From assembly GCA_016931455.1 (NCBI GenBank), contig JAFGES010000065.1, positions 2,097-66,096 of the forward strand: a stretch of DNA of 64,000 nt, read 5' to 3'. Position numbers and translations under genes: made by a program. A model generated the notes under the pieces. The model saw only the letters and a program-made list of their open reading frames with translations, had not been told where the DNA came from and did no database searches. Position 1 is the first letter of the stretch, and each line of letters opens with the position of its first letter. Positions 23,062-40,555 of the stretch are shown here, piece by piece. This DNA is from Desulfobacterales bacterium (GTDB lineage Bacteria; Desulfobacterota; Desulfobacteria; Desulfobacterales; JAHDSC01).

Positions 23062-23193
23062 GTTATTCAAATCGATATTTACCCCAACGTTGCAAAAGCC
23101 GGGGAGGGTAAAAAGGCGGTTACCTTGAAAAATTGCTGTTGAAAAATTACTTGACAGAATTTTTATATGAGATATAGGGTGATTCATATTTTG

Positions 23194-23358
23194 GATCAGG
23201 TGCTCATAATGAGCTGAAAAGGGAACCCTCGTGAAAATCGGGGACGGGCCCACCGCTGTAATCGGGGACGAAGGTCGCAAAATACCACTGATGAAGACAT
23301 TTTCATTGGGAAGGTGCGACCGGTAGAATGAACCGTGAGTCAGAAGACCTGCCTGATC
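23194..23358 (+). promoter_or_regulatory. Cobalamin (B12) riboswitch aptamer
   Basis: P1 pairs GATCAGG (23194-23200) with CCTGATC (23352-23358). The conserved core reads AAAAGGGAACCCTCGTGAAAATCGGGGACGGGCCCACCGCTGTAA, then ACCACTG, GGGAAGG and AGTCAGAAGACCTGCC (the B12 box). Confidence 0.85.
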
Positions 23359-23422
23359 ACTGAGCCGACCGCACAGGGATGGTGCCCGGCATTTCAGATC
23401 TATTCGGATAAAAAAGGGAAAT

Positions 23423-23459
23423 CCCCGGATCGAAATTAAAATCGGTCCGGGGTTTTTTT
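23423..23459 (+). terminator. Intrinsic terminator (riboswitch expression platform)
   Basis: CCCCGGATCGA pairs with TCGGTCCGGGG, giving an 11 bp stem with one G-U pair and an 8-nt loop. A T7 tract follows, 13 nt before the cobN-like ATG. Confidence 0.75.
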
Positions 23460-23472
23460 ATGGGGTGAAGAT

Positions 23473-26400: not shown

Positions 26401-27654
26401 GGAAAATGGGCGGTTCCAGTCAAAGCCGCATTTAAAGAAAATCTACGCGGTGTGGATATCGCAGTGCACTCCCGTTCCAGTAATGTAATCGGGATCATCG
26501 ATACCGATGATTTTTTCATGTATCTGGGGGGCATGTCGCTAGCCGTAAAAAACATCAAAGGGAAAGCGCCGGATACCATGGTGACCATGCACCGCCGGAA
26601 AGACGAACTAATGGTGGAAGATGTAACCAAGACCATCGGCCGGGAAATGCGTACTCGCTATCTCAATCCCCAATGGATTGAGGGGATGAAGCGCGACAAC
26701 TACGCCGGTGCCAGGCAAATGGCCGATTTTACGGAAAACCTATGGGGCTGGCAGGTCACGGTACGCGATGCCGTGGATGCGGACAAGTGGCAGCAAATAT
26801 TTGAGGTTTATGTGGAGGACAAATACGGGATGGAGTTATCCGAATTTTTTAGTAAAAATAACCCTTGGGCCTATCAGTCCATGACGGCCCGAATGCTGGA
26901 GGCTGTGCGCAAGGAGTATTGGAAGGCCGAAGAAAAGGTCACGAAAAAGCTGGCCGCCGAATATGCGTTGAATGTGGTGGAAAAAGGGGTGGCCTGCTGC
27001 AGTCACAGCTGTAACAATCCCATGCTCAACCACATGGTGATCGACATTATCTCCCTGCCCGGCGGACTCTCACCGGAGATGGTTGCGAAATTTAAATTGG
27101 CTTTGGAAAATATGGCAGCCAAAACCCTTGATGAGCAGGTCGCTGAAAGACATAAATTGCTGGCAGAACTTAAAACCGATTTGGGAAAGATGGATCAAGA
27201 CGTGCCACAGGATGCCCAAAAGACATCGGAAAAGCCTATGGAACCGCAAAAAATTGCTGATACTGAAAATTTAGAAAATGTCGAAGGCTATAAGATGGAG
27301 GATATCAAGAATCAGGATAAGATCACGGATTTTAGTTCATCCAGCGTCAAATGGATTGTACCGCTTTTTGTCCTTTTGTTGATCGGGTTGTTTTTATGGT
27401 TTTATCGAAAATCGGCCGTCACACTGCCGAAATCATTTTTGGCCAAGTCCATGTTTGTAATGGCCGTCTGCTTTTTTATCTCAGTGGCTGTTATGCCGTT
27501 ATTCGATGATCTGGAAAGCGTTTATCAAATGGCCCGATATCATAGCGATACAAAAGCCCAAAAAGCATTTCCCATTTTTCCTATAATCTTTACGGCAACG
27601 GCCTTTGCAGCCGGCTTTGGTTTCAAGAACAAAGAAATAAGGAGCCTAACATGA
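23473..27654 (+). CDS. CobN/Mg-chelatase-family large subunit homologue with signal peptide and C-terminal TM anchor
   Basis: 1393 aa with a CobN-type body. The N-terminus KSAATLFLIGCMVLILLPFEVSA-EN looks like a Sec signal. The last 110 aa contain three hydrophobic helices (VKWIVPLFVLLLIGLFLWFY, MFVMAVCFFISVAVMPLF, FPIFPIIFTATAFAAGFGF). Confidence 0.9.
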   Translation: MRNYRLEFKSAATLFLIGCMVLILLPFEVSAENVAILEVDINSYQVHKAVKQLNLPESIDTRFFTFEDLKKNETAKAFISDSSVVFVNVMMPELADFMVNEKLMNGRAVYALNQAGDPEALAKKGYLFDPMIMDYYHNLTAANMVNMVRMAVNWHMDPTVTFEALEKLPEGCIYHPDAPEKFQELTAYKKWYAGRAEYRPENPWVGILFYNTTLKEGQVEAACALIGKLESSGFNVLPCFGPVQMVLTQYLKPVAGKSPVDMVLAFTMKFSSGINDEIRSALVNLNVPVFNVIRPYGETIEQWRQSEVGLGPMETVWAVATPEFSGAVEPTVLIGKKEIIDPETGRRLYVYETIEETIDFLIPRLKKWAALQRKPNAEKKVAIIYYNHSQGKQNIAAAYLNIFRSLQNILNRMKQEGYTIDQADRLTEEGIKDMILTSGRNIGSWAPGELDVLLASGEAEQVSLAEYKSWFDSLPEDFKKPVIAQWGTPEDCTIMTKDGRLVFPMVKLGNLVLLPEPARGWSDDPMKLYHDTTLYPHHQYIAAYLWLSKKFQADAMVHLGTHATYEWLPGKQAGLCPSDPPEIMTGSIPNIYPYIVDDVGEGIEAKRRGRGVILDHLTPPMKEADLYNEYRKIHELFHKWEIAKANGSETASEYKREVLKMVEETGIANDLSINEMNEEAMEKIHLYLHEIDTNSLPYGLHTYGKPYDPDAAAETIQLIMKQNPKADKKQVRRDLDASSVREMDNFIRALNGEYVPAGEGNDPLRNLAAIPTGKNFYGFSPAKVPSKAAWEIGKRAAVQMIEEKLKKEGKYPVKVGVVLWATETTRNEGVHESTILYLMGVEPIWDATERVTGSRVIPGPQLGRPRIDVLINPSGLYRDMFPDKLIFLDNAVQKAMAQTDIENFLAKNKAVIKTALLASGMNEADAEVQSRFRIFTEKTGSYGNGVAEMAVDSGLWESDEAVSDVYLNRVQFAVGQGKWAVPVKAAFKENLRGVDIAVHSRSSNVIGIIDTDDFFMYLGGMSLAVKNIKGKAPDTMVTMHRRKDELMVEDVTKTIGREMRTRYLNPQWIEGMKRDNYAGARQMADFTENLWGWQVTVRDAVDADKWQQIFEVYVEDKYGMELSEFFSKNNPWAYQSMTARMLEAVRKEYWKAEEKVTKKLAAEYALNVVEKGVACCSHSCNNPMLNHMVIDIISLPGGLSPEMVAKFKLALENMAAKTLDEQVAERHKLLAELKTDLGKMDQDVPQDAQKTSEKPMEPQKIADTENLENVEGYKMEDIKNQDKITDFSSSSVKWIVPLFVLLLIGLFLWFYRKSAVTLPKSFLAKSMFVMAVCFFISVAVMPLFDDLESVYQMARYHSDTKAQKAFPIFPIIFTATAFAAGFGFKNKEIRSLT

Positions 27655-28289
27655 TTGAAATTGGTGCATTACTGAAAGCCTTTATTTACTTCATCTCTTC
27701 TGTTCTACTATATCCCGTTTTGTTTCTGTTGGTGATTTTGACCTTGCTGATCATCGTCTATGCCGGATCGTTTTTGGCCGAATGGTTGGAACGTTTTCGG
27801 ATGCAAAAATGTCCGCCTCAAGAGCTACCGGCCATGATGAAAAACGGCGAACCATCAACAGTTTTTTCCCACCGGGTGAACCAATATATCCAAATGATGC
27901 ATCAAGCCAAAGACGGTAATAATTCAGGTGAGGTTGCCATTGAAAATCTGCTTCAGGAAATGACTCTGAAGATGTGGAAATCCATGGACCGGCTCAGAAT
28001 TTTGGTGCGGGTAGCGCCGTCCCTTGGTTTGATCGGTACGCTGATCCCTATGGGCACCGGATTGGCAGCCTTGGGACAGGGGGATATGACTCAGCTTACC
28101 ACGAATTTGGTCATTGCCTTTACGACCACGGTAGTGGGCCTTGCCGTCGGTACGTTAGCTTTTTTCTTTTATACGGTCAAGCGGCGCTGGATCGAAGAGG
28201 ACGTTAAGAACATGGAAATAGCGACTGAAATGGCAATGTACGACGCAGAAAGGATGGAAGATGAGATACTTTCAACGACGGAGAATTAA
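27651..28289 (+). CDS. MotA/TolQ/ExbB-family proton channel protein
   Basis: The start overlaps the cobN-like stop (ATGA). It has three TM segments and the family motif APSLGLIGTLIPMGTGL. Confidence 0.85.
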   Translation: MIEIGALLKAFIYFISSVLLYPVLFLLVILTLLIIVYAGSFLAEWLERFRMQKCPPQELPAMMKNGEPSTVFSHRVNQYIQMMHQAKDGNNSGEVAIENLLQEMTLKMWKSMDRLRILVRVAPSLGLIGTLIPMGTGLAALGQGDMTQLTTNLVIAFTTTVVGLAVGTLAFFFYTVKRRWIEEDVKNMEIATEMAMYDAERMEDEILSTTEN

Positions 28290-28626
28290 CAAAACCGTCA
28301 GAGCCTTCGGCAATCCCGCCTTCAGGGATGATGATCCCATGACCGGTGTCGCCAACCTGTTTGACATCGGTTTGGTCTTTATCGTGGGGCTGCTTATGAC
28401 CATTTTTAGTGCCTATCGTCTCCAAGATCTGTTTGATCAAAAATCGGAAATGACCATCATGAAACAGCAAAATTCCGGTGAGATGGAGATCATTATCAAG
28501 AAAGGCACAAAAATCAAGGCCACGAAAGTGACCCGGGAAGCGGCCAAAGGTATGGGTAACCGGCTCGGCGTGGCCTATCGGTTGGAAGACGGATCCATGG
28601 TGTATGTTCCGGATGAAAAGGAGTAG
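28261..28626 (+). CDS. DUF2149 protein with ExbD/TolR-like topology
   Basis: It overlaps the previous gene by 29 nt. DDPMTGVANLFDIGLVFIVGLLMTIF forms a single TM segment, followed by a soluble domain of about 70 aa. Confidence 0.7.
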   Translation: MRYFQRRRINKTVRAFGNPAFRDDDPMTGVANLFDIGLVFIVGLLMTIFSAYRLQDLFDQKSEMTIMKQQNSGEMEIIIKKGTKIKATKVTREAAKGMGNRLGVAYRLEDGSMVYVPDEKE

Positions 28627-28633
28627 AAAATAA

Positions 28634-30655
28634 ATGAAAAAAATGTCGATTTATAAACGATTGCAGGTAGTTTTCGTTGTTTTCTGGATTAGCCTCGCTA
28701 CGGTCGGCTGGGCTGAGCCCATCAACATAACCGATGACGTTGGAAACCCAATACGCCTCGACGAGCCGCCCCGGCAGGTAGTTTCACTCATGCCATCGGC
28801 CACTGAAATCATTTTTGCCGTTGGTGCCGGTGATGCCCTGGCGGGAATCACCTATCACAGTACCGCTATTGCCGGCGCTGCAGATAAAACCATTGTCGGC
28901 GGTTTTTTTTCCCCCTCGGCAGATCACGTCATGTCGCTTAAACCCGATCTTATCATTGTTTCTTCATTTCACGATAAGTTTGTCGAGCAGCTACCTGCCG
29001 GAGTCCCGATTTTGGTGATAAACACCCTAAAAATGAACGATGCATTTCATCATATCCAATTGATCGGCGATCTTTTTCACCGGGAGCTGGAAGCCTCGGA
29101 ATTAATGAAGAAAATCCAGCGGCAACTGGACCTAATTGCCCGAAAGGTGGCTGAAATTCCCGAAGAAAAACGAAAACGCGTCATGCGTCTGATGGGCCGA
29201 GAACAAATCATGACGCCGGGAAACGACTCGTTTCAAAACGAGATCATCCGAGCTGCCGGCGGCATTGCTCCGGATTTTGGAAAATCCGGAAGTGTGGTGC
29301 CGGTGACACGGGAAGAATTTATACGGTTTAATCCACAAATTATCTATGGATGCGGTGACGACGCAAAAGCGGCGGATTCCTTTTTTTCACAAGAGGGTTG
29401 GTGTTCCGTAGCTGCAGTAAAGAACCATCGGATCCACTCCTTTCCCTGTGATCTGACCTGCCGGGCCGGTATTCACTTGGGAGATTTCGTCTCCTGGCTA
29501 TCTTCGATGATTTACACCGATGAATTCTCAGATGCCGACCATGAACTGCTTTCCCGAAAGGTCATTCATACCCGGCCGATCCGTATTTTACTGGATTATG
29601 TCCAAGACGCGGAAATTGCCACCAGTATTCTCCACGATTTTGAAAGCAAGAGCCTCATCATCAATTTTCGATCCCCCATGGCCGTGGTCTCCACCCTCGA
29701 AGGGCAACGGCAAGGTGTACTTACGGTGGGCAATCATTACTCTCCACCCCCTTGCTGGGCTTTGAACCATTCTTGCAGCATAAAGGAACTTCGTGCGAAT
29801 CTTTATTCCGTGATCGGAAAAACTGCAGAAAACGCCTCTTTTTTATTCACCGGTGCCAATATGGACAATTTGGCCGTTAAAAAGGAAACCTTTAAGGAAA
29901 TGACGGTCTATGCCTTGGTTACCGCCGGAGTTCGCGGTAATGCCGTGCGCATGGGAACCGATACCGGCAATTACTATGAGCCGGGCACCATCAACATGAT
30001 CTTTCTCACCAACATGAAACTGAGTCCACGGGCCATGACCCGGGCCATTATTTCGGCCACCGAAGGCAAAACCGCCGCCTTGCAAGACTTGGACATCCGT
30101 AGCACGTATCAGCCGTTGACGGCCGCCGCCACCGGTACCGGTACGGATAATATCCTAGTGGTTCAGGGGGATGGATCGGCTATCGACAATGCCGGCGGGC
30201 ATTGCAAAATGGGTGAGCTCATCGCCCGCGCGGCTTACGCCGGTGTTCGCGAGGCCATTTTCAAGCAAAACGGGATCGTCGGCAAGCGGGATATTTTTCA
30301 ACGTTTAGCCGACCGTCACCTGAGCATTTCTCAACTGATTGCGGATGTTTCCTGTAGCTTATGCAACTTGCAGGGATATAAAAAAACTTTTTCAGGCCGG
30401 GTGGAACAGGTGCTGTTGGATCCTGCCTATGCCGGATTTCTGGAAGCGGCCATGAGCCTGAGTGATGGTGTCGGGCGGGAAACAATAAATGATATTTCCT
30501 TTTACGAAACATGGTGCCTTGACGTGGCGGGTCGGATTGCCGGTAAAAAGGTGGCAAAAATAAACACCCATTTTTCAAACGATGTTTTGCCCAGGCCGCT
30601 ATCGATGGCACTGAATGCAATTTTTACAGGGGTTTCCTTTCTTCCAATGCAATAA
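28634..30655 (+). CDS. Secreted BtuF-like periplasmic binding protein fused to CbiZ-like adenosylcobinamide amidohydrolase
   Basis: Signal peptide MKKMSIYKRLQVVFVVFWISLATVGWA. The N-terminal half is Peripla_BP_2-like (VVSLMPSATEIIFAVGAGDALAGIT, KPDLIIV). The C-terminal half is CbiZ-like (GTINMIF, AATGTGTDN). Confidence 0.8.
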   Translation: MKKMSIYKRLQVVFVVFWISLATVGWAEPINITDDVGNPIRLDEPPRQVVSLMPSATEIIFAVGAGDALAGITYHSTAIAGAADKTIVGGFFSPSADHVMSLKPDLIIVSSFHDKFVEQLPAGVPILVINTLKMNDAFHHIQLIGDLFHRELEASELMKKIQRQLDLIARKVAEIPEEKRKRVMRLMGREQIMTPGNDSFQNEIIRAAGGIAPDFGKSGSVVPVTREEFIRFNPQIIYGCGDDAKAADSFFSQEGWCSVAAVKNHRIHSFPCDLTCRAGIHLGDFVSWLSSMIYTDEFSDADHELLSRKVIHTRPIRILLDYVQDAEIATSILHDFESKSLIINFRSPMAVVSTLEGQRQGVLTVGNHYSPPPCWALNHSCSIKELRANLYSVIGKTAENASFLFTGANMDNLAVKKETFKEMTVYALVTAGVRGNAVRMGTDTGNYYEPGTINMIFLTNMKLSPRAMTRAIISATEGKTAALQDLDIRSTYQPLTAAATGTGTDNILVVQGDGSAIDNAGGHCKMGELIARAAYAGVREAIFKQNGIVGKRDIFQRLADRHLSISQLIADVSCSLCNLQGYKKTFSGRVEQVLLDPAYAGFLEAAMSLSDGVGRETINDISFYETWCLDVAGRIAGKKVAKINTHFSNDVLPRPLSMALNAIFTGVSFLPMQ

Positions 30656-30673
30656 CTACTAAAGGTTTTCATC

Positions 30674-32635
30674 ATGCGCACATTCGTCCCATATGCTCAG
30701 TTTTTTTCTTGTCCCGTGACTTATTCTCGGAATCGATCCGTATTTTTGAAACAGCTTGTATCAGCAATTCTGCCGGTGGTGTTTTTAATCCTGATGATTA
30801 CGCATGCCACGGTTTACGGACAACAAAACCACTCACACGGTCATTCGGTTGATTCCACGGTTATGGAAAACATTGTCGTGACGGCCGACCGTATTGATGA
30901 ATACATAGAAAATTATCCTAACCAGGTCGTGATGCTGAGTAAGGAAGATATTGCTCGGCGCAATATGCTTAGCGTGGAGGAAGCGATGAGATCAATGCCC
31001 GGGGTGGACGTAAAGAGAAGTTCGGGAATCGGTTCCCGAATTTCCATTCGGGGTTCGGGAAAATCCGGTGGCGTCCTGGTGCTTCTCAACGGTCGCCCTT
31101 TAAACAGCAGCCAGTATGGTGGGACGGATCTGTCCACCATCCCCATCGACATTGTTCAGTCCATCATTGTTTTCAAACCGCCCGTCCCTGTATGGCTGGG
31201 GCCCGGGGGCAGCGACGGGGCAATCAATATCGTCACCCGCGATCCGATCGGTAAAAAGGAAAAAAAGCGCCATTCGACTCAAATCAGAGGTGCCGGCGGT
31301 TCTTACGGACTGATCGAGGGGAGTTTGACCCATCGCAACAGCTTGGACTTAGGAACGATCATGGCCACGGCGGCCGGTACACACCGGGACGGCAAACGAA
31401 CGAACGGCGACAGGGACAGCGGTACCGTTTGCCTGCACTGGGACCGGGAATCGGCGAGTGAGCGGCAGATGGAAATCGACGGCCGGTACTATGAATCGGA
31501 ATACGGCTCAACAGGTCCGGTGGACAACCCAACACCGGATGCCCGGCAGGAATACAAAAAGTTTTCCGTCGACGGCCGTATCGGCGGCATTGTCGACAGT
31601 GCGTGGGACTATGCAATCAACCTATACGGTGATACGGTCGATCTAACGGACGAATCCCAGTTCGGGTCAACCTCCACCCTTGACAGCGTCAAATGGGGGT
31701 TAAAAGGGGAAAGCAACTGGTGCGATGAAGATAATGCCTGGGAACTTCGTCTCAACGGTCTTGTTGAACGCGACGATGTGGATCACACTCTTTCAGGTCA
31801 ACACCACCGGGTCACTGCCGGGCTCGGGGCCCAAGTTGACCGGCGCTGGCAATCCCTTACCGGCACGGTAGGACTTCGTGGGGATCACACCAGCGATTTT
31901 GACTTTATTCCCGGATTTTCCAGCGGCCTGAGCTTCAGTGCGGCCAAACACTGGACGGCTAAGGTAAATGCCGGTTACACGATGAATATTCCTACCTTCG
32001 GCCAGCTTTACCAGCCCAGCCACGGCAGCATTGACCAAGTGCGCGGCAATCCGGATCTGGACAAAGAAAAAATCTGGTCATACGATGCCGGGATTGAATA
32101 CCGCCGGGACAAAACCCACCTGTTCCAGGTGTCTCTGTTTCGGTCGGATACCCAAGATCCCATTGTATATCAACGGGGCATCGATCTGATCTATCGGCCG
32201 GTAAACACGGATCGCTCGTGGCGGCACGGTTTTGAGGTTAGCTTTAAACACGGTTTTGATTTCGGGCTGATTGCCGATATCAACGCCATTGTTCAGGACT
32301 CGGAAATTTGCGATACCGAAAAGGAACTACCCTATACGCCTCGCGTCAAATTGAAAGGGTCGCTTCAATATACCTTGCCGGAGCCCGGCACTCGGCTGGA
32401 AACGACGATAAGGTATTGCTCAAAACAGTATAGCGAGGTGGAAAACCGTAAATCCGAGCGGATTGACGACTATATTACCGTGGATCTTAAAGCGGTCCAA
32501 CCGTTTAAGCTCAAAACAATGGCCGCTGAGTGGTTTGTGAGCGTTGAAAATCTGTTTGACACCGATTATCAGATCCACTACGGCTATCCCGATGACGGCA
32601 TCAGGTTTGTCTCCGGCCTGAATTTAACGCTTTAA
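30674..32635 (+). CDS. TonB-dependent outer-membrane receptor (BtuB-like context)
   Basis: It has a signal sequence, a plug region (IVVTADRI, VDVKRSSGIGSRISIRG, NGRPLN), a beta-barrel, and a terminal aromatic-rich segment ending in L. Confidence 0.85.
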   Translation: MRTFVPYAQFFSCPVTYSRNRSVFLKQLVSAILPVVFLILMITHATVYGQQNHSHGHSVDSTVMENIVVTADRIDEYIENYPNQVVMLSKEDIARRNMLSVEEAMRSMPGVDVKRSSGIGSRISIRGSGKSGGVLVLLNGRPLNSSQYGGTDLSTIPIDIVQSIIVFKPPVPVWLGPGGSDGAINIVTRDPIGKKEKKRHSTQIRGAGGSYGLIEGSLTHRNSLDLGTIMATAAGTHRDGKRTNGDRDSGTVCLHWDRESASERQMEIDGRYYESEYGSTGPVDNPTPDARQEYKKFSVDGRIGGIVDSAWDYAINLYGDTVDLTDESQFGSTSTLDSVKWGLKGESNWCDEDNAWELRLNGLVERDDVDHTLSGQHHRVTAGLGAQVDRRWQSLTGTVGLRGDHTSDFDFIPGFSSGLSFSAAKHWTAKVNAGYTMNIPTFGQLYQPSHGSIDQVRGNPDLDKEKIWSYDAGIEYRRDKTHLFQVSLFRSDTQDPIVYQRGIDLIYRPVNTDRSWRHGFEVSFKHGFDFGLIADINAIVQDSEICDTEKELPYTPRVKLKGSLQYTLPEPGTRLETTIRYCSKQYSEVENRKSERIDDYITVDLKAVQPFKLKTMAAEWFVSVENLFDTDYQIHYGYPDDGIRFVSGLNLTL

Positions 32636-32639
32636 TTGT

Positions 32640-33242
32640 TCACTTTTTTTCATTAGAAACCGAGGGATGCTTTCCCTCAAATTCAGCAATCCGTTGACGG
32701 ATGGCATTAAGCTGCTGTTCCATTTGTTTTGCCAGCGCTTTCAGATCCTTGATTTCTTGTTCTTCAGAATGCTGTTTAATCGGCGGCATAGGTGGGCTTT
32801 CGGTAACCATCCGACCGGCGCCCATCCCCATGCCTCTCCCCATACCTTTTCCCATTCCCATGCCTCTTCCACCACCCATTCCCGTACCGAAACGGCTTTG
32901 CACATTGGGTGCTGATGAGCCGGAAAGTGTCCCGGTTTTATATTGCCGGACCGCCTCGTGGACCTTTCCTCCGACACCGGTTATCACCTGAATTCCGGCG
33001 GCGCCAAAAGTTTTAAAAGCGTTCGGACCGCAATTGCCGGTCAGCACGACCGATACGTTTTTTTCGGCCATAAGCTGCGCCGACTGAATACCCGCACCAC
33101 CTCCTAGTGAAATATTGGGGTTTGGAACGGCTTCAAATTCCATGGTATCCGGATCAATGACCAAGAAATAAGCGCAACGTCCAAAACGTATTTCCACTGA
33201 ATCATCCAGCGTAGGTCCTGTGGCTGTAACTGCTATTATCAT
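32640..33242 (-). CDS. NifX/NifB-like (dinitrogenase FeMo-cofactor-binding fold) protein with Gly/Met-rich coiled-coil tail
   Basis: The first 105 aa read FGRCAYFLVID...GAGIQSAQLM...VLTGNCGPNAFKTFGAAGIQV. The tail reads GMGGGRGMGMGKGMGRGMGMGAGR, followed by EEQEIKDLKALAKQMEQQLNAIRQRIAEFE. Confidence 0.8.
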   Translation of the reverse strand: MIIAVTATGPTLDDSVEIRFGRCAYFLVIDPDTMEFEAVPNPNISLGGGAGIQSAQLMAEKNVSVVLTGNCGPNAFKTFGAAGIQVITGVGGKVHEAVRQYKTGTLSGSSAPNVQSRFGTGMGGGRGMGMGKGMGRGMGMGAGRMVTESPPMPPIKQHSEEQEIKDLKALAKQMEQQLNAIRQRIAEFEGKHPSVSNEKK

Positions 33243-34189
33243 GTTTTTTTCTCCTTCTCTCTATTGACGGCTGAGTAATATATCGCGGTATTTTTGCGTT
33301 GCATGCGGATTTGATCGGTTCTTAACAGTTTTCCGAGGTATTTGGACACCTCATTGAGGTGCATACCTAGTCCGTCGGCAATCTGTTGTGCCGTGCACGG
33401 ACGGCGCTGCAACATGAAAAAAATCGTGTCTTGGTTCGCTCGAACATCTTTGGTATGGTTCGTGCTGAATTCTGCAATGATTTCCGCGGTCGGATGAAAC
33501 AAATGGGTTAATGCTATCATCTGTTCTTTGGATAGGGCCGTGGCATAATCCTCGGCCGGTGGACGAACAACCGTATTGATTTGAATGCGGTCCGGGCCGA
33601 TTTCCTTTGCCAAGGCGGCAATTTTCCGGACATCGGCAGGTATTGAGTTAATCCCTGCTATCAGGAAAACCTCCATCCATAGCCGGCCCTTAAATTGAGA
33701 GCGAAACGTCTTTTGCCCTTCGACCAACCGATCAAACCTTAATTGAGGATGGGGACGATTCACCAACTCGTAAGAAGCCTGGTTCCAGGCACTTAGGGAA
33801 ACCTTGACGACGTCGGCATAAGCGGCGGCATCGCGTACTTCCGGAAGATACAGCATCGTAGCGTTGGTTAACAGCGCGGCAGGAATTGTGCTGTTTGTGT
33901 GTATAAACTCGAGAATTTCCCCGAACCGGGAATGGAGTGTGGGTTCACCGGAACCGGAAAGGGTTATATAGTCCGCCTTGCCGCCTGTTTTCAGCCAATG
34001 TTCGAGTTCAGCAAGCACATCCGCCGTCGGAACATATTCTTTGCGGACTATCGTTTTTTGCGGGGTTCGACCCAACTGACAGAAAACGCAATCGAAGCTG
34101 CATGTTTTGTAAGGGGTCAGGTCGACCCCCATAGAACGGCCAAAGCGACGAGAGGGTACCGGACCGAACAAATAGTGATACTTTTCCAT
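33239..34189 (-). CDS. Radical SAM protein with C-terminal winged-helix domain
   Basis: The CxxxCxxC motif is CSFDCVFC, preceded by GPVPSRRFGRSMGVDL. The C-terminus MLQRRPCTAQQIADGLGMHLNEVSKYLGKLL is wHTH-like. There is a 4-nt overlap with the next gene. Confidence 0.85.
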   Translation of the reverse strand: MEKYHYLFGPVPSRRFGRSMGVDLTPYKTCSFDCVFCQLGRTPQKTIVRKEYVPTADVLAELEHWLKTGGKADYITLSGSGEPTLHSRFGEILEFIHTNSTIPAALLTNATMLYLPEVRDAAAYADVVKVSLSAWNQASYELVNRPHPQLRFDRLVEGQKTFRSQFKGRLWMEVFLIAGINSIPADVRKIAALAKEIGPDRIQINTVVRPPAEDYATALSKEQMIALTHLFHPTAEIIAEFSTNHTKDVRANQDTIFFMLQRRPCTAQQIADGLGMHLNEVSKYLGKLLRTDQIRMQRKNTAIYYSAVNREKEKKT

Positions 34190-34209
34190 TATAATTTTCC
34201 CGCTAATGC

Positions 34210-34244
34210 AGGATAAGCCATCAGTTGATCCGGTGGCTTATCCT
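34210..34244 (-). other. Intercistronic stem-loop between the DUF5320 and radical SAM genes
   Basis: AGGATAAGCCA pairs with TGGCTTATCCT in a perfect 11-bp stem with a 13-nt loop. No U-tract follows on the coding strand. Confidence 0.45.
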
Positions 34245-34273
34245 GTGCCGTTAGCCTGCCTACAAGGCGGTTA

Positions 34274-34636
34274 TTACTTTGTCTTTTCACTTTCAAGTTC
34301 CGCAATCCGCCTCTTTATTCCTTCAAGATCATCTGCAAGATATTTGGCCTCGTCCTGGAGTGCCTCCATTTCTTGTTGTCGTGTCGGTACGGCCGGATAT
34401 GGTGCTGCATACGGTCCACCATACCCCCCATAGGGTACGGCCCAGCGTCCTCGACGACATCCTCGGAATCCGTATCCGAAACCTCGGCCGAAACCTCGGC
34501 CGAAACCAAATCCGCCGTATGCACGACCGAAGGCCGGGTTCGCAAACCCCGGTGTTGAATGTCCGGCACAATACCCTGCGCCTCGTCCTGTCATCGATCC
34601 CATCCCTGCGGGACCTGTTCCATCTCCACCCGGCAT
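34274..34636 (-). CDS. DUF5320 family protein
   Basis: The N-terminus reads MPGGDGTGPAGMGSMTGRGAGYC. A Gly/Phe/Arg-rich middle is followed by the coiled coil RQQEMEALQDEAKYLADDLEGIKRRIAELE. An AAGGAGG Shine-Dalgarno lies upstream. Confidence 0.75.
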   Translation of the reverse strand: MPGGDGTGPAGMGSMTGRGAGYCAGHSTPGFANPAFGRAYGGFGFGRGFGRGFGYGFRGCRRGRWAVPYGGYGGPYAAPYPAVPTRQQEMEALQDEAKYLADDLEGIKRRIAELESEKTK

Positions 34637-34699
34637 GGTAACCTCCTTTCTTGGTGTTTAAAGTTAAATTAGCTACTTCTCTAATCAATCTAACTCTAC

Positions 34700-34715
34700 G
34701 CAATTTGTGTGCCAA
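34700..34715 (-). promoter_or_regulatory. Sigma-54 promoter (-24/-12)
   Basis: The minus strand reads TTGGCAC-ACAAA-TTGC, an exact TGGCAC-N5-TTGC core. The -12 element lies 64 nt upstream of the DUF5320 ATG. Confidence 0.6.
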
Positions 34716-34841
34716 ATAAGAAAGGTTATTTTGTTTAAGCCGCAACTGCTATGATACTAAAGACTTAAGAACTAATCAGGATTGCAGGAAGAATATTCAT
34801 TGTGCGAAATGAGTAGCATAAATGCAACTATACAGTAGTCA

Positions 34842-35891
34842 TCATAGCCCAAGGGTAAAAAATGCAAAACCCACCATAAGCCCGAAGACAAGATTAAAAG
34901 CTTTAATGAGCACGGAATCTTTGATGCTATAGGAGAGCAACGGAAGCATGCCGTGGCCGTCTTGAACAAAAGAGGTGGTGAAAAGCACGGAAAAAGGTAC
35001 TAATCCCTGTGCATACAACATCACAAATATTAGATGCGGTCCTGATTCCGGAATGATTCCGATAAAAGCTCCAATCAAAAGCACCCACATCAGGTGCTCT
35101 CGGATAAAGGATTCCAAATTCCAAAAAGCCAAACCCAAATGCACAAAAAGCAAGGCGCCGAATGTCCACAGGAAGACCCGAAAAAGATGCCTCTTGATGA
35201 TGTGATCCCAGATATGGACCAGCAAGTATTGTTCAGAGGCAATCGCTGCAATATATAAGGAGCACACAGACAGGATTGCAAATGTGAGACGTTTCCAGTT
35301 CCAATCGGTTGGGCCGATTGTTCCAAGTACCAGCAGCATCAAATAGGAGCCGATAAGCGCGAGTAAAAGAAAGCGTGTGAAAGAAAGTTGCTGAAAATTT
35401 TTTGAAAAATTCCTGAGTCCGAAAATCCGGCGGACTTCCTCCGTGCTATTTGCGTCGAATAAACAAAGTTCACAGACGGCTTCACGGCAGGATTCACATG
35501 GAACAATGCCGAGAAATTCAATAAGCTTATCGCTTACCCAGGCAAAAATGATCCCACATACAAATAGCAGTCCGAACAGCGCAACGGCTGTACCCGGGAA
35601 CTGCGAAAGCATTACAAACGCCTCATCTCCGGAAGTGGCGATCATTCCACCTACGACGGCACCAAAAGAGATCATTCCATGGACATAAAGCGTTATGTTC
35701 ATGAAAGCTCCCAGGCAGCCCGGTGTAGAACCCAAAAAGGAGGCAAGCGTATACTGACGCCACCGATTACCTTGCATAATGGCTGAGATCCGTCTTTGCG
35801 TGGCCATATCTACAAAATCTACCAAAAGCATCATCACAAATACGAAAAAGCTGATCATTACCGCATGCTTAAAGATAGAGAGGATCTCCAT
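34842..35891 (-). CDS. ArsP_2-type polytopic permease (annotated in databases as putative manganese/heavy-metal transporter)
   Basis: 349 aa with about 10 TM segments. Motifs are GSTPGCLG, SGDEAF, PESGPH and QDGHG, plus a central Cys cluster CESCREAVCELC. Confidence 0.75.
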   Translation of the reverse strand: MEILSIFKHAVMISFFVFVMMLLVDFVDMATQRRISAIMQGNRWRQYTLASFLGSTPGCLGAFMNITLYVHGMISFGAVVGGMIATSGDEAFVMLSQFPGTAVALFGLLFVCGIIFAWVSDKLIEFLGIVPCESCREAVCELCLFDANSTEEVRRIFGLRNFSKNFQQLSFTRFLLLALIGSYLMLLVLGTIGPTDWNWKRLTFAILSVCSLYIAAIASEQYLLVHIWDHIIKRHLFRVFLWTFGALLFVHLGLAFWNLESFIREHLMWVLLIGAFIGIIPESGPHLIFVMLYAQGLVPFSVLFTTSFVQDGHGMLPLLSYSIKDSVLIKAFNLVFGLMVGFAFFTLGL

Positions 35892-35985
35892 TGCTTTGAC
35901 CTCTTATTAATATCAATCGGTTTGGCACATTTCACAAGCACCCTCAACACAAAAAATTTCCATCCTATTTTGAAATCATCATTGC

Positions 35986-36837
35986 TCATCCAACTTCAAA
36001 TGTAAAACTTGTACCCACCTGACATGGGAGACACCGGCCGGGGAAGGCTGACCACAGATCAACCGTGGCCGGCAGGCCGGTGCAGTGAGCCGGCGCCAGA
36101 CGCTCAACCTTAAGCTGACGAAGGGCATTGATTGTCCGACTCATCCGCTCCGGGGATGCCGATTCAAGATGCATACCTCCTATGACCGCATAAATCGGTA
36201 CACCCTCCGTCAATTGCTTGATATATCTCAGGGTATTGATGACCCCGGCATGGGCGCAGCCCATGAGAACCACCGTGCCTTGAGAAGATTCAAAAAACAA
36301 TGCCTGATCGTCGAGCAAAGGATCGGGGTACCGAAGTTTTTTATCGAGAAAAAATGATCCGCCGGTATCTTCAAATTCCGTATCGCGCGGGATTTGGCCG
36401 GTTAAAAAAATATTTTCGAAAATTTGTGTCGGTTGTTCCGTCCAAACCAATTTTTTGACTTGGCGACGGATTTTTTCTTCATCAAGATTCGGCATCCCGA
36501 TGTCACGACTTGTTCCTTGACCCTCGCGTATGTATTTGGGATGAAGTGCTGATGGATGAACATAGATTTTGGGGTTATCGGCCGCAGCCAAAGCGTACTC
36601 CAATCCCCCGGTATGATCATAGTGGCCATGGCTAAGCGCAATGGCATCGGTTTGATCCAAGCGCGCTTGAAGCCTTTTTGCATTTCCGGAAAGAACATTC
36701 GGCAGCCCTTGTCCGGTATCAAAAAGCAAATGGTGTGCTCCTGTATCGATCCAAAATGAAATTCCATGTTCCGCCAGTATGTGATGGCCGTGAGCGGTAT
36801 TTTCAATTAATATTTTAATGCGGATGATATTGCTCAT
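35986..36837 (-). CDS. MBL-fold metallo-hydrolase (COG1237-like)
   Basis: The HxHxDH motif reads SHGHYDHTGG, with further His/Asp ligand motifs (GCAHAG, APAHCTG). Confidence 0.8.
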   Translation of the reverse strand: MSNIIRIKILIENTAHGHHILAEHGISFWIDTGAHHLLFDTGQGLPNVLSGNAKRLQARLDQTDAIALSHGHYDHTGGLEYALAAADNPKIYVHPSALHPKYIREGQGTSRDIGMPNLDEEKIRRQVKKLVWTEQPTQIFENIFLTGQIPRDTEFEDTGGSFFLDKKLRYPDPLLDDQALFFESSQGTVVLMGCAHAGVINTLRYIKQLTEGVPIYAVIGGMHLESASPERMSRTINALRQLKVERLAPAHCTGLPATVDLWSAFPGRCLPCQVGTSFTFEVG

Positions 36838-36902
36838 TTAACCTTTTCTCCTGTTTGTGGATTGCCGAACTCATATTAACTTTGTCTTGTCATTAAAATA
36901 GA

Positions 36903-36918
36903 GCAATTCATGTGCCAA
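36903..36918 (-). promoter_or_regulatory. Sigma-54 promoter (-24/-12)
   Basis: The minus strand reads TTGGCAC-ATGAA-TTGC, an exact core 66 nt upstream of the MBL ATG. The flanking upstream sequence resembles that of the 34700 promoter. Confidence 0.6.
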
Positions 36919-37028
36919 GATAAGAAAAATGCTTTTGATTGGAACTTATTCTTTACTTAACAAAATAATAGAAATAAATAAATGACGGCGTCGTAAAATG
37001 GAGGGCGGTTTGAAATTAAATCGATAGG

Positions 37029-37259
37029 GTGGGGGAATTGGTCGGCGTTATGAGCGGAAATATAAAAATGGTGAAGGTTGTTTTAGCTGTTTTGATGATA
37101 ACACTGATGACTTGCCCATCTTATGGTTTTGAATTAAAAACCCGTTATACGACAATCATCTATGAAGATTCCAAACAGCTGCATAAGTTCGATGACAAGA
37201 TTTACCTGGGCCGGTTGAAATATCTTTTAAGTACTAAATCCCGAGATTTGTGTTTTTAA
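37029..37259 (+). CDS. Small signal-peptide protein, probably 3'-truncated
   Basis: A hydrophobic leader VKVVLAVLMITLMTCPSYG is present. The ORF ends abruptly next to the frameshifted gene at 37330-38758. Confidence 0.3.
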   Translation: MGELVGVMSGNIKMVKVVLAVLMITLMTCPSYGFELKTRYTTIIYEDSKQLHKFDDKIYLGRLKYLLSTKSRDLCF

Positions 37260-37329
37260 TGTCAAAAATAATAATATCGGTTCTAAGCAAGGCTTGCCAA
37301 TTGAGGGATGATATAGAGTTCTTTAAGTT

Positions 37330-38758
37330 TCAACCCATGGTGATTACCTGGCTACCCAACCGAGTCAGATAGTATTTATATGTGTTTGAAACCTTTTTGA
37401 TCAAACCGTGCGTGCGGAGCCGTTTCAAAATTCTTGAGATTTGACTTGTGTTTTTATCATGGATTTTTTCTCGCAGATGCTTGTTTTGAAATCCACTGAC
37501 AGTGAATTCACCAGATGCGATTGATAAAAAGACTTTCTGATCATAGCTGTCAAAGAAATTGAAGCCTTTATAGGGGCGGTGATTTTTCACGATAGTAGTG
37601 GTTACTTTTTCTAGTTTTTTAACGCCGACACTCGGATCTGTTAGGTCCGAGATAAATTGCAAATCCCGGCGATTCGAATCAAAAAGAGGTTTCTGCAATG
37701 GCCCGATACTGTATAGCCCTTTTTTCATCGGGGCCAACTTTTTTGAATTGGTTCCGTTGCGATGTTCTACCGTTCGGTAGTTTTTGAAAAAAGAAACATC
37801 ATGGGCCGTTGTCTCAATACGAAGAATAAAACCGAACTTGTCATACATTTTAATGGAGGCTTTTCCCATGGTATGTTTGATTCGGGTTCCTTCGATTCTT
37901 GTTGAAAACGTGTTGCCCATTTCGTCCTGATAATTCGGGTGAAGCTTACGTCCCAGAAAAGTGGCGATATTTTCTGCTTTTATGCAGTGAATAGCGGTTC
38001 GTGTAAGGTGATCATAAATATTTTGCAGATCTTGTCTGCGTTTAAAAATGATGTCCGTTGCATATTCAATCTGCATAATACTCCAGTGATATTGCTGTTT
38101 GAAGTGGCTGATGACCGGGCAGTAAGCTCGGGCAAACGCATCTAACTTATCATGAAGCAACTTAATTGGAATATCGTCACTGAGTTGTTGTGCCTTTGTA
38201 AAAGAATCGCTTCCGATGATGGCATTGTCCAACAAGCTGCATTGGATACCTTTTTGTTCGAGTAAGGCTGCTAGTTGATTGTGACCATTGAAATAAATTT
38301 GTAATCGGAAAGGACACCATGTGGGAACCCTGACATAGCACAGACCCAGCTGTGGATCGATAAAATAAAAATAATAGTGTAAACACTTGCCCTGAACTGA
38401 TTTGAGATATGTTTTTCCCGTTTTCTTGTTGTGCCAGGGCTTGTATGAGGGGCATGCTTCCATCGCTGAAAAAATGTGAACCAGCCCGGGTTGGCAGCCA
38501 CGTTGATCCAATATTTTTTTGATGATGGTTTCTTTGCGAATATTTCTTTTTTGCAGGAATTGGATTTGTAGCCCATTGCATTGGGCTATCTTTTCAGCAT
38601 TGTTTCTGATTTCATTTTTGAAGGGTTCAGTTAAAGTACAAATAGCTGGTCATGCCATCGGCATAGCACAGACCCGGGAGGGTACCCTGGATAACGATAC
38701 GATCGTAACAATGCAAAATACCCGATATTTGATTTGAATACCTTTCGGTAAGTAACAT
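37330..38758 (-). pseudogene. Conserved hypothetical protein with C-terminal MarR-like wHTH, frameshifted near the N-terminus
   Basis: MLLTERYSNQISGILHCYDRIVIQGTLPGLCYADGMTSYLYFN* (from 38758) continues in another frame as TEPFKNEIRNNAEKIAQCNGLQIQFLQK...DQRGCQPGLVHIF, which leads into the 393-aa ORF. The C-terminus reads ISRILKRLRTHGLIKKV. Confidence 0.55.
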
Positions 38759-38863
38759 TTTTGAATCTCCCCTTTAGAAGAATTCGTTTGGGGAAATAAT
38801 AGCGTAATATTTGTTTGATGGAAACCCTGTTTGGTTCTGGCTTTGCCAGGTTAGGAGACCCTT

Positions 38864-39172
38864 ATGAAAGATAATAAACTCTCCCCTATACATCCGGGTG
38901 AGATTCTGATGGAAGAATTTTTAAAGCCGATGGGCATCAGTCAGTATCGACTGGCCAAGGACATAAGTGTGTCGCCCAGACGAATTAATGAAATTGTACA
39001 TGGAAAAAGAGCCATTACCGCAGATACAGCCCTGAGATTAGGGCGGTTTTTTGATATGTCCCCTCAATTTTGGCTTAATCTCCAAACCCGTTACGATCTT
39101 GAAGTCACAGAAGATTCGCTTGCAAATCGTCTGGATCAAGAAGTACACTGTTACACTTCAAGTGCCGCTTAA
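38864..39172 (+). CDS. higA: HigA-family antitoxin (XRE HTH)
   Basis: IHPGEILMEEFLKPMGISQYRLAKDISVSPRRINEIVHGKRAITADTALRLGRFF is a typical HigA sequence. No higB ORF lies upstream. Confidence 0.8.
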   Translation: MKDNKLSPIHPGEILMEEFLKPMGISQYRLAKDISVSPRRINEIVHGKRAITADTALRLGRFFDMSPQFWLNLQTRYDLEVTEDSLANRLDQEVHCYTSSAA

Positions 39173-39367
39173 ATTATTTTTGAGTTTATGAGCACGACTA
39201 TCGAACTATCTGGGGGGCAAACCTTTCCCAAAGTGCATCGGAATAGACGGAATTTCCGGGAAATCAGAAAACATCTAAATTTTATTTTGAAATTCCACAT
39301 AGGCTGGAAAGGGGAGATGTGGTGGTGATTCCCTGAGAGCTTACATGATAACCAAAGGGCCGGGCGT

Positions 39368-40555
39368 TCAGTCCGAATCTTTCGCCATATTGAAAAGATG
39401 ATTCAGGTGATCAAAGGGAACAATTGAAACATCCGTTCTTTGCTGTACTTTATCACCGCCGTAAACAATGCCGCTGCCCTTGGGAATATGATCCGGAAAT
39501 AACTTAACAAAATGGTTCAGCCCCTTGAAATAGTTTCGGGTTATCGTCATGCCTGCTTTGATTTCAATGGGAAAAATATCAGATCCGCTGACCAGCAGCA
39601 GATCAACCTCGTTTCCCTTGCTGTCCCGATAAAAGTAGAGATTGCTTCTTTTTCCTTGATTAAATCTGAATTTAAGGGCTTCGGAAATTACCAAGTTTTC
39701 AAATAGGCTGCCCCGTAACGGGTCTCTTGAGATTTGGTTTTTATTTTCGATGCCAATCAGGAAGGCGGCTAGCCCGACATCGTAAAAGAACAGTTTGGGT
39801 GACTTGACCAGACGTTTGGAAATGTTTCTGTGAAACGGTTGCAAAAGGAAAATGATATAACTCGCCTCAAGAATAGAGAGCCAGTTTCGAGCTGTTGTGT
39901 GAGAAATTCCGGTATCGTTGGCCAGGGTATTTACATTGAGCAATTGGCCGATACGCCCGGCACATAATTTGATAAAGCGCTGAAAGAGGTTTAAATCTTT
40001 AATTGTGATGAGCTGCCTCAAATCCCTCTCTATATAGGTTTCAAAATAGTCGCCGAGGGCCTGGGTCGGATTGAGTTGTTTGTCCCATATTCGGGGATAA
40101 AATCCATGATAGAGCAGATCGTCAACGTCCGGCAGGGAAAAAGCCGATTGAATTTCCTCCCCGGAAAAAGGGAGTAATTTTATCAGGGCGGTGCGGCCGG
40201 CCAGTGATTGATTGATGGTATGGCTCACTTCAAATTGTTGACTGCCCGTCAGAATAAAAAGGCCTTCCCGCTGATCCTCGTCAATCATCGGCTGCAGATA
40301 GGAGACAAGGTCGGGGGCTCTCTGGATTTCGTCAAATATAGCCCCATCCGGATATTGGGCCAGAAACCCTCTTGGATCATCAATGGCGAATTGACGGGTA
40401 TCCGGTGATTCCAGATTGGAGTAAGGTTTATGGGAGAAGACCTTTCTGCAAAGCGTGGTTTTTCCGCTCTGACGTGGGCCGGTAATGGTAACAACCGGAT
40501 ACTGCCCGGCAAGGATTTGTAATACAGGTTCGATTGTACGGTTAATGAATGGCAT
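39368..40555 (-). CDS. AAA+ ATPase with DUF4143-type C-terminal domain
   Basis: Motifs GPRQSGKTT, DEIQ and LTGSQ...SLAGR. It is a paralogue of the ORF at 97-1320. Confidence 0.8.
   Translation of the reverse strand: MPFINRTIEPVLQILAGQYPVVTITGPRQSGKTTLCRKVFSHKPYSNLESPDTRQFAIDDPRGFLAQYPDGAIFDEIQRAPDLVSYLQPMIDEDQREGLFILTGSQQFEVSHTINQSLAGRTALIKLLPFSGEEIQSAFSLPDVDDLLYHGFYPRIWDKQLNPTQALGDYFETYIERDLRQLITIKDLNLFQRFIKLCAGRIGQLLNVNTLANDTGISHTTARNWLSILEASYIIFLLQPFHRNISKRLVKSPKLFFYDVGLAAFLIGIENKNQISRDPLRGSLFENLVISEALKFRFNQGKRSNLYFYRDSKGNEVDLLLVSGSDIFPIEIKAGMTITRNYFKGLNHFVKLFPDHIPKGSGIVYGGDKVQQRTDVSIVPFDHLNHLFNMAKDSD

Follow-up and report, generated by a model that had tools for sequence, protein, structure and literature searches.

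Two adjacent units of a probable ORP-type sigma-54 regulon in a Desulfobacterales genome, one with a conserved predicted enhancer and one without

To what kind of system do five co-directional genes belong that lie behind two similar sigma-54 promoters, in DNA where no gene for a sigma-54 activator is found? The question is posed by a 64-kb stretch of Desulfobacterales DNA (the window; 64,000 nucleotides), in which genes for an MBL-fold metallo-hydrolase, an ArsP_2-family permease, a DUF5320 protein, a radical SAM protein with a winged helix (rSAM) and a NifX-like protein follow each other on the minus strand. The initial annotation of the locus had described one five-gene cluster of unknown function, driven by near-identical twin promoters and concerned with the maturation, trafficking or detoxification of a metal or metallocofactor. 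Comparison with about 170 related loci gave a different picture. The genes form two adjacent transcription units, MBL-ArsP_2 and DUF5320-rSAM-ORP, and not one five-gene operon; relatives carry the two units in differing combinations. The cluster has a described relative, the ORP/OrpR regulon (PMC8359166, PMC3897727, PMC6345978), because its last gene, the NifX-like one, encodes a homologue of the orange protein (ORP). The window quite probably contains two units of an ORP-type sigma-54 regulon, reduced and rearranged in comparison with the known one.

Two large sets of related loci were used. The rSAM-anchored set consists of 80 genome loci, mostly from Desulfobacterales metagenome-assembled genomes; their open reading frames (ORFs) were clustered and representatives were checked against Pfam. 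Independently of it, a scan that started from the MBL protein yielded 80 metagenome loci. Single loci are designated by number (L006 and so on).

The window contains exactly two matches to the consensus -24/-12 core of sigma-54 promoters (TGGCAC-N5-TTGC, GG at -24 and GC at -12), both on the minus strand, which is the coding strand of the five genes, against a chance expectation of 0.13. Two matches were reached in one of 100 shuffled sequences, and tolerating one mismatch added just two sites, which corresponds to the background level. Promoter P1 (TGGCACATGAATTGC, 36903..36917) stands in front of the MBL gene and promoter P2 (TGGCACACAAATTGC, 34700..34714) in front of the DUF5320 gene. Both are exact and intergenic, with predicted transcription starts near 36891 and 34688, respectively. 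The distance from the final C of TTGC to the ATG is 66 nt for P1 (ATG 36837) and 64 nt for P2 (ATG 34636), and the genes have the Shine-Dalgarno sequences AGGAGA and AAGGAGG, respectively. The flank TTTCTTAT is common to the two promoters, with a 1-nt offset in P1. Known RNA families gave no match in the 5′ leaders of either unit, and the P2 leader is unstructured (folding z 0.15).

The same motif is found in the relatives. In 903 kb of the rSAM-anchored loci TGGCA[CT]-N5-TTGC occurs 27 times on the strand of the rSAM gene and 4 times on the opposite strand, and in most motif-bearing loci it lies at most about 100 nt 5′ of the first operon gene, which is usually a small NifX gene. The intergenic sequence around the motif has diverged between relatives while the motif was kept. 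The MBL genes of L163-166 and L168 have a sigma-54 core, homologous to P1, approximately 35-75 nt 5′ of the start codon, and the P2 core resembles the promoters of L006 and L167 (TCTTATATTGGCACACAAGTTGC). Judged by this conservation of sequence, both cores are genuine and conserved in relatives. The idea that P2 was copied from P1 or from the MBL promoter of a relative was rejected, as all pairwise identities fell between 54 and 60%; the comparison of P1, P2 and the relatives' promoters revealed no relationship beyond core and enhancer.

The enhancer emerged when 17 promoters were searched for palindromes over 300 nt of upstream sequence; the search returned GTCGCA-N4-TGCGAC. With at most two mismatches and with positions counted from the T of TGGCAC, this palindrome is present at -114 to -116 and/or at -145 to -148 in 11 of the 15 promoters from relatives; two further promoters carry it at -135 to -139. 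From 21 sites, taken from relatives only and with the window left out, we built a scoring matrix. The best matrix match in the whole window is the palindrome GTTGCATTTATGCTAC at 34813..34828 (19.6 bits; the second-best match reaches 11.4 bits), the predicted upstream activator sequence of P2. It begins exactly 114 nt upstream of the P2 TGGCAC, a spacing that is found also in the relatives (-114 to -116). The background of the matrix is low: two matches of 13 bits or more in 457 kb of MBL-anchored loci. Four promoters that were fetched later, and thus are independent of the matrix, carry the palindrome at the same places: the L163 MBL promoter at -115, the L163 NifX promoter at -148 and -116, the L167 promoter at -146 and -114, and the L168 promoter at -115.

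In the relatives the promoters often have a gene for a PAS-AAA+-HTH activator directly upstream of them, and the enhancer lies directly downstream of the activator gene bearing the OrpR hallmark. Activators of OrpR type, which carry C-x8-C-x3-C in their PAS domain (CWEVFRSNMCETDC is one example), are encoded in 20 of the 80 rSAM-anchored loci and, in addition, in L163-165 and L167. Pfam assigned the PAS-Sigma54_activat architecture in the latter four loci, with HTH_8 on a separate ORF in L167. The loop that contacts sigma-54 reads GAFTDA, GAFTNA or GAFTGA, and NRLAAARELGIHKSTLFRKIK is a common HTH sequence. The spacing of the cysteines is identical to that of C52, C61 and C65 of OrpR from Desulfovibrio vulgaris Hildenborough (DvH), conserved residues that hold a redox-sensitive [4Fe-4S] cluster (PMC8359166). 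The contact loop of DvH OrpR is GAFTDA (PMC4641369). By analogy, the signal is more likely to be redox potential, sensed through an OrpR-type [4Fe-4S] PAS domain, than a specific metal.

The architecture of the known system agrees with that of the window in several respects. In DvH the ORP complex, of which ORP is one subunit, is encoded by two operons, transcribed from sigma-54 promoters that are activated by OrpR, an enhancer-binding protein dedicated to them, together with IHF, the integration host factor (PMC3897727, PMC8359166, PMC6345978). Both the DvH orp operons with OrpR (DVU2103-DVU2109) and the window have paired sigma-54 promoters within one cluster, a palindromic enhancer roughly 90-150 nt upstream and a gene for ORP, a NifX-fold protein. 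The relatives of the window share with DvH also the MinD-type ATPases with two [4Fe-4S] clusters and the PAS-AAA+-HTH activator with its C-x8-C-x3-C motif and GAFTDA-type loop. The DvH OrpR binding site, GGGCGYRTTTTGCGCCC, is a 17 bp palindrome (PMC8359166). The predicted OrpR-type site at P2 (16 bp) resembles it without being identical; the DvH palindrome is GC-flanked with an AT-rich centre.

The gene that ties the window to this system is the last one of the DUF5320-rSAM-ORP unit (32640..33242, minus strand). It encodes an Orp8-like NifX-fold domain (PF02579, Nitro_FeMo-Co, 1.8e-22) fused to a DUF5320-type tail (PF17253, 1.1e-9); the tail adds about 90 residues, comprising a Gly/Met/Arg-rich stretch and a DUF5320-type coiled coil. 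The best match of the ORP domain in the PDB is 2WFB, the ORP of D. gigas (E 1.2e-19; 51 of 111 residues identical, 46%), and it covers the full ORP chain. D. gigas ORP binds a non-covalent [S2MoS2CuS2MoS2]3- cluster (PMC6345978); for the window fusion the sequence does not decide between a Mo-Cu and an Fe-S cluster.

P1 differs from P2 in its upstream region. No enhancer-like site was found within 400 nt of P1 (best matrix score 1.8 bits), and no other palindromes or repeats were found upstream of it. In blastn comparisons the homology to relatives breaks at 36938..36940: the L168 alignment (1653 nt, 82% identity) stops at 36938 and the promoter match of L163 at 36940, that is, 21-23 nt upstream of the P1 -24 element. 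The window DNA beyond this breakpoint bears no relation to what lies upstream of the promoters in the closest relatives. In L163 and L168, the two closest ones, the enhancer of the MBL promoter lies beyond the breakpoint position. The junction is no artefact of the assembly used here, because an independent Logan contig crosses it unchanged (32400-37282, zero differences; the contig ends near a repeat-like ORF). The simplest reading of these alignments is that a rearrangement severed the MBL-ArsP_2 unit from its enhancer.

With regard to the promoters, the initial annotation thus had a mixed fate. The two exact cores on the coding strand, 64-66 nt from an ATG, were found as described. Activator sites common to both promoters had been expected at 34760-34900 and at 36960-37100; the first interval contains the P2 site, the second contains none. 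The near-identical twins are not equivalent, since only P2 has the conserved enhancer and the homology of P1 breaks about 21 nt upstream of its -24 element.

In the MBL-ArsP_2 unit the first gene (35986..36837, minus strand) encodes an MBL-fold metallo-hydrolase of COG1237/TM1679 type with the motif HxHxDH (PF00753, 7.5e-16). Its best PDB matches are 2p4z (1.6e-32) and 3h3e (6e-29). The second gene (34842..35891, minus strand) encodes the ArsP_2-family permease (PF11449, 2.7e-38; NF037962). The match is full-length and exceeds both cut-offs (Pfam 132.5 versus 32.5 bits, NCBIfam 134.6 versus 100 bits). A cytoplasmic Cys-rich loop of the permease, PCESC-x4-CExC (CxxC-x4-CxxC), is conserved in eight orthologues. 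The permease has no ars context: neither ars genes nor metal regulators were found in its neighbourhood. Arsenic or metal detoxification has no support beyond the family name of the permease.

The second unit begins with the DUF5320 gene (34274..34636, minus strand; PF17253, 2e-25). The protein starts with an invariant 20-mer, in which the motif MPxxDxTGPxGxGxxTGR is the consensus of 29 sequences, and continues with a Gly/Arg/aromatic-rich middle part and a C-terminal coiled coil. The DNA coding for the invariant N-terminus (34584-34636, minus strand) matches many other contigs of the source metagenome. Local word depth is 270 there versus 26 elsewhere, and the DUF5320 family is therefore abundant in the source community and conserved at the DNA level. 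Between the DUF5320 stop and the rSAM start lies a stem-loop without a U-tract (34202..34255, minus strand; -31.6 kcal/mol, z -4.2). Comparable hairpins of different sequence occupy the equivalent place in L006 (2680-2715), L046 (3877-3909) and L061 (7956-7982), which suggests a conserved processing or attenuation element.

The rSAM gene (33239..34189, minus strand; PF04055, 2e-13) overlaps the ORP fusion gene by ATGA at 33242-33239, the 4-nt overlap being as initially annotated, like the common direction of the five genes. The winged helix corresponds to a weak C-terminal ArsR/HTH_20-like match (HTH_20, 9e-4). The cysteines of the CX3CX2C motif (C30, C34, C37) are invariant in 22 sequences, and C265 is the single additional invariant cysteine. 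We found 7835 homologues, the top 120 with 70-84% identity; a sequence search against the PDB gave no match. In the predicted structure (pLDDT 76) the fold is nearest to the cores of pyruvate formate-lyase activating enzyme, NifB and viperin (probability 1.00). Assignment to a named subfamily was rejected, since even the best NCBIfam scores fall far short of the cut-offs: 38 versus 318 bits for TYW1, 34 versus 380 for W maturase and 31 versus 325 for MoaA. The fold search matched generic radical SAM cores only and gave no named subfamily.

The initial annotation had stated that DUF5320/NifX-like/rSAM neighbourhoods recur in anaerobes, and in both sets of loci the gene families of the window do co-occur. 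The recurrent order is activator gene, sigma-54 motif, a small gene of NifX fold, DUF5320 in some cases, rSAM, NifX::DUF5320 fusion, and two or three MinD/ParA ATPases with 4Fe-4S inserts, of the Orp3/Orp4 type. Genes for DUF134, NifU_N, CGGC, thioredoxin, DUF1638, OYE flavoproteins, ARMT1/DUF89, ArsP_2 and MBL proteins recur as well. Within 5 kb of the rSAM gene, in 74 scorable loci and counted as lower bounds, a NifX-fold gene was present in at least 31, a MinD-type ATPase in at least 27, DUF5320 in at least 21, an OrpR-like activator in at least 18, ArsP_2 in at least 7 and MBL in at least 5 loci. In many loci the NifX::DUF5320 fusion is downstream of rSAM, as in the window. The nearest rSAM-anchored locus is that of Eth-SRB1, an ethane-consortium partner.

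The MBL-anchored scan reached the same orp-like neighbourhood, with MBL typically located after the MinD-type ATPases and before a radical SAM gene. The closest MBL relatives (74-84% identity) are followed by ArsP_2 (L163-L165 and L168; in L168 the blastn alignment extends into ArsP_2). ArsP_2 orthologues close orp-like operons, behind the MinD-type ATPases, and an OYE-type flavoprotein frequently comes next. In L163-165 ArsP_2 is followed by another radical SAM gene, an OrpR-like gene and a small NifX gene. This radical SAM protein (L163 8460-9401) was rejected as an orthologue of the window rSAM and was not counted as conservation: it is only 30% identical and belongs to a different subfamily. 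At least two rSAM subfamilies therefore stand at equivalent positions in these clusters.

These observations lead us to propose the following mechanism. An OrpR orthologue encoded elsewhere in the genome would bind the predicted site at 34813-34828. Under reducing, anoxic conditions, with its [4Fe-4S] PAS domain intact, it would contact sigma-54 polymerase at P2 by DNA looping and open the promoter by ATP hydrolysis, so that transcription would start near 34688. The stem-loop after DUF5320 probably raises the level of the DUF5320 protein over those of the rSAM and ORP proteins. The MBL-ArsP_2 unit would have been deprived of its enhancer as accessory DNA took the place of the sequence upstream of about -45. 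P1 would then be silent, receive weak activation from the P2 enhancer at a distance of 2.1 kb, or be circumvented by read-through. We infer that the gene products deal with a metal-sulfur cluster of importance to anaerobic life, and the link to such clusters made in the initial annotation seems reasonable. ORP may serve as a cluster-binding carrier and rSAM as a modifying or assembling enzyme, with the Cys-loop permease and the MBL hydrolase contributing accessory steps.

Several findings weigh against assigning the window to an ORP-type regulon. The activator gene is absent, unlike in the DvH orp cluster. As initially annotated, the window encodes no bacterial enhancer-binding protein (bEBP): neither a GAFTGA-type, an ESELFG nor a Walker-A signature was found in any frame, a hidden Markov model from 30 related bEBPs found nothing at E below 1, and tblastn found none either. 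The type of activator in this genome is thus taken from the relatives, some of which have REC-type bEBPs nearby instead (L017, L044, L067). The orp cluster is also incomplete, as Orp3/4/9-type (MinD/MrpORP) ATPases, DUF134 and NifU were not found in the 64-kb window. Conversely, the DvH OrpR regulon has no rSAM, MBL or permease gene (PMC8359166), whereas the units of the window include the radical SAM-wHTH protein, the MBL hydrolase and the ArsP_2 permease, and ORP there carries a fused DUF5320 tail. The units are in tandem, in contrast to the divergent ones of DvH, and one promoter is without an enhancer. The IHF consensus WATCARNNNNTTR was not found, with up to one mismatch, in 34715-34812 or 36918-37060. 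P2 keeps one intact copy of the usual two palindromes; its -147 position scores -4.6 bits. Near the sigma-54 motifs of more distant MBL-anchored metagenome loci no enhancer-matrix sites were found. The promoters of these loci carry other CGCA/TGCG-type palindromes, and the matrix is therefore lineage-specific. Finally, three metatranscriptome runs of the source study had no contigs on 32400-37400, a result which is uninformative rather than negative.

The enhancer at 34813-34828 might serve both promoters, the activator looping back 2.1 kb to P1, so that all five genes would be co-regulated. Enhancers of sigma-54 promoters, among them the NtrC sites of glnAp2, can act at kilobase distances and from either side. 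The P1 core is perfectly preserved despite the adjoining rearrangement, and we found no terminator between ArsP_2 and P2, both of which would suit a shared enhancer. We nevertheless regard this arrangement as rather unlikely: activation drops with distance if a suitably placed bending site is absent, and in the relatives the MBL promoter has a site of its own at -115, which suggests that one is needed. The preserved P1 core may simply mean that the rearrangement is too recent for the core to have decayed. A different activator at P2, an NtrC-type REC-AAA+-HTH regulator with a PAS histidine kinase in place of an OrpR-type redox sensor, appears improbable. REC-type bEBPs and PAS kinases are indeed found near rSAM in the three loci mentioned, and in L044 an enhancer-like site at -135 coexists with a local bEBP of REC type. 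These REC-type proteins, however, have a different HTH and rarely adjoin the promoter, whereas at least 20 loci have an OrpR-type gene immediately upstream of the enhancer-promoter pair.

Equally improbable, in our judgement, is the concept closest to the initial annotation, with P1 and P2 as equivalent twins that respond to one metal-responsive bEBP and the five genes as a single undescribed module for metal or metalloid maturation and detoxification. The similar cores and flanks of P1 and P2 and the co-occurrence of the gene families are in line with it, and so are the permease, which passes the NCBIfam cut-off for 'arsenic efflux protein', and its Cys-rich loop, which suggests metal binding. 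Against this stand the enhancer conserved at P2 only, the broken homology upstream of P1, the existence of a described relative in ORP/OrpR (PMC8359166) and the lack of ars genes or metal regulators nearby. Moreover, the relatives' activator has a PAS domain of the [4Fe-4S] type, which in DvH senses redox potential, not metal. An origin of both motifs by chance, with transcription of the genes from sigma-70 promoters, is extremely improbable. Sigma-70-like hexamers do occur at 37300-37271 and 34868-34841, in a number expected by chance, and our promoters are read from DNA rather than from transcripts. But the expectation of the sigma-54 motif is only 0.13 per window, the promoters keep their position and strand across relatives whose flanks have diverged, and the enhancer stands at canonical spacing.

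A broader interpretation of the assigned regulon, which is speculative and on balance unlikely, would see the OrpR-controlled neighbourhood of Desulfobacterales as a nitrogenase-independent line for assembly and trafficking of a complex metal-sulfur cofactor, with rSAM performing the key step. Its parts would be the radical SAM-wHTH protein, NifX-fold carriers including ORP, MinD/NifH-like ATPases, a NifU scaffold, the MBL hydrolase and the Cys-loop permease. The rSAM protein might act on the cluster or on the invariant N-terminal peptide of DUF5320, and the disordered Gly/Arg-rich DUF5320 tail, which is also fused to ORP, might tether the components. The parts list of the relatives resembles the nitrogenase cofactor line (NifB, NifX/NafY, NifH-type ATPase, NifU) in having rSAM, several PF02579 carriers, Fe-S ATPases of the MinD/NifH superfamily and NifU_N. 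The window rSAM model has NifB structures among its best fold matches, although the match is to the generic core (TM 0.48, 13-19% identity). The window rSAM lacks the auxiliary-cluster ligands of NifB because it has only the CX3CX2C motif and one other invariant cysteine. Unlike in the nitrogenase line there are no nitrogenase genes, and the resemblance is one of parts list, not of membership.

The physiological role of the ORP complex is still unclear, and its regulation has been well worked out in one Desulfovibrio strain (PMC8359166). New elements described here are the conserved Desulfobacterales enhancer, the regular presence of rSAM-wHTH, MBL and ArsP_2 genes in such regulons, the fusion of ORP to DUF5320 and the enhancer-less P1. 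The rSAM-wHTH protein, the MBL hydrolase, the Cys-loop permease and ORP::DUF5320 are new candidates for ORP genetics and biochemistry, and the assembly-line interpretation, if true, would give the orange protein a biosynthetic context. The palindrome GTCGCA-N4-TGCGAC at -115/-147 makes OrpR regulons predictable in uncultured sulfate-reducing bacteria. P1 offers a natural example of a sigma-54 promoter disconnected by rearrangement. The results also call for caution in annotation: the permease should not be named 'arsenic efflux protein', nor the MBL hydrolase a methanopterin-pathway synthase.

Upstream of P1 the window has an accessory-type stretch (36940-40555). It contains an apparently frameshifted ORF (main part 38511-37330, N-terminal piece 38757-38630), a HigA antitoxin gene (38864-39172) and a gene for an AAA_14/DUF4143 ATPase (39368-40555). 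The main part of the ORF (37330-38511) had no Pfam or NCBIfam match, and it was not given a transposase label. Close to this repeat-like ORF, at 37282, the Logan assembly of the source run breaks off.

Two further features were seen in the related loci. Genes for CooS-type CO dehydrogenase and for nickel insertion (CooC or CooT) lie by the rSAM or MBL gene in L023, L058, L070, L072, L113 and L131, and in L082 CooT directly follows the rSAM gene. In five places about 100 nt of conserved non-coding sequence, containing GAGGTTAACTTGGCAACCTCCATTTTCATATTACCCCC and, further on, GGCCCTTGAGGGATAGGTCC, come after a sigma-54 promoter (TGGCATAATATTTGC) (L011 109-230; L013 4747-4870 and 6459-6580; L087 8037-8150; L091 3216-3330). 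The stretch is not present in the window; in orp-like neighbourhoods it may represent a sigma-54-dependent small RNA.

On its other side the ORP unit faces a convergent operon on the plus strand (23181-32635), headed by a cobalamin riboswitch (RF00174, 116 bits) at 23181-23370. The operon encodes a CobN-like chelatase (1393 aa), ExbB, DUF2149, a BtuF-CbiZ fusion and a TonB-dependent receptor, and its last gene stops 4 nt from the ORP::DUF5320 stop codon. It is probably a B12-repressed unit for cobamide/cobinamide uptake and salvage.

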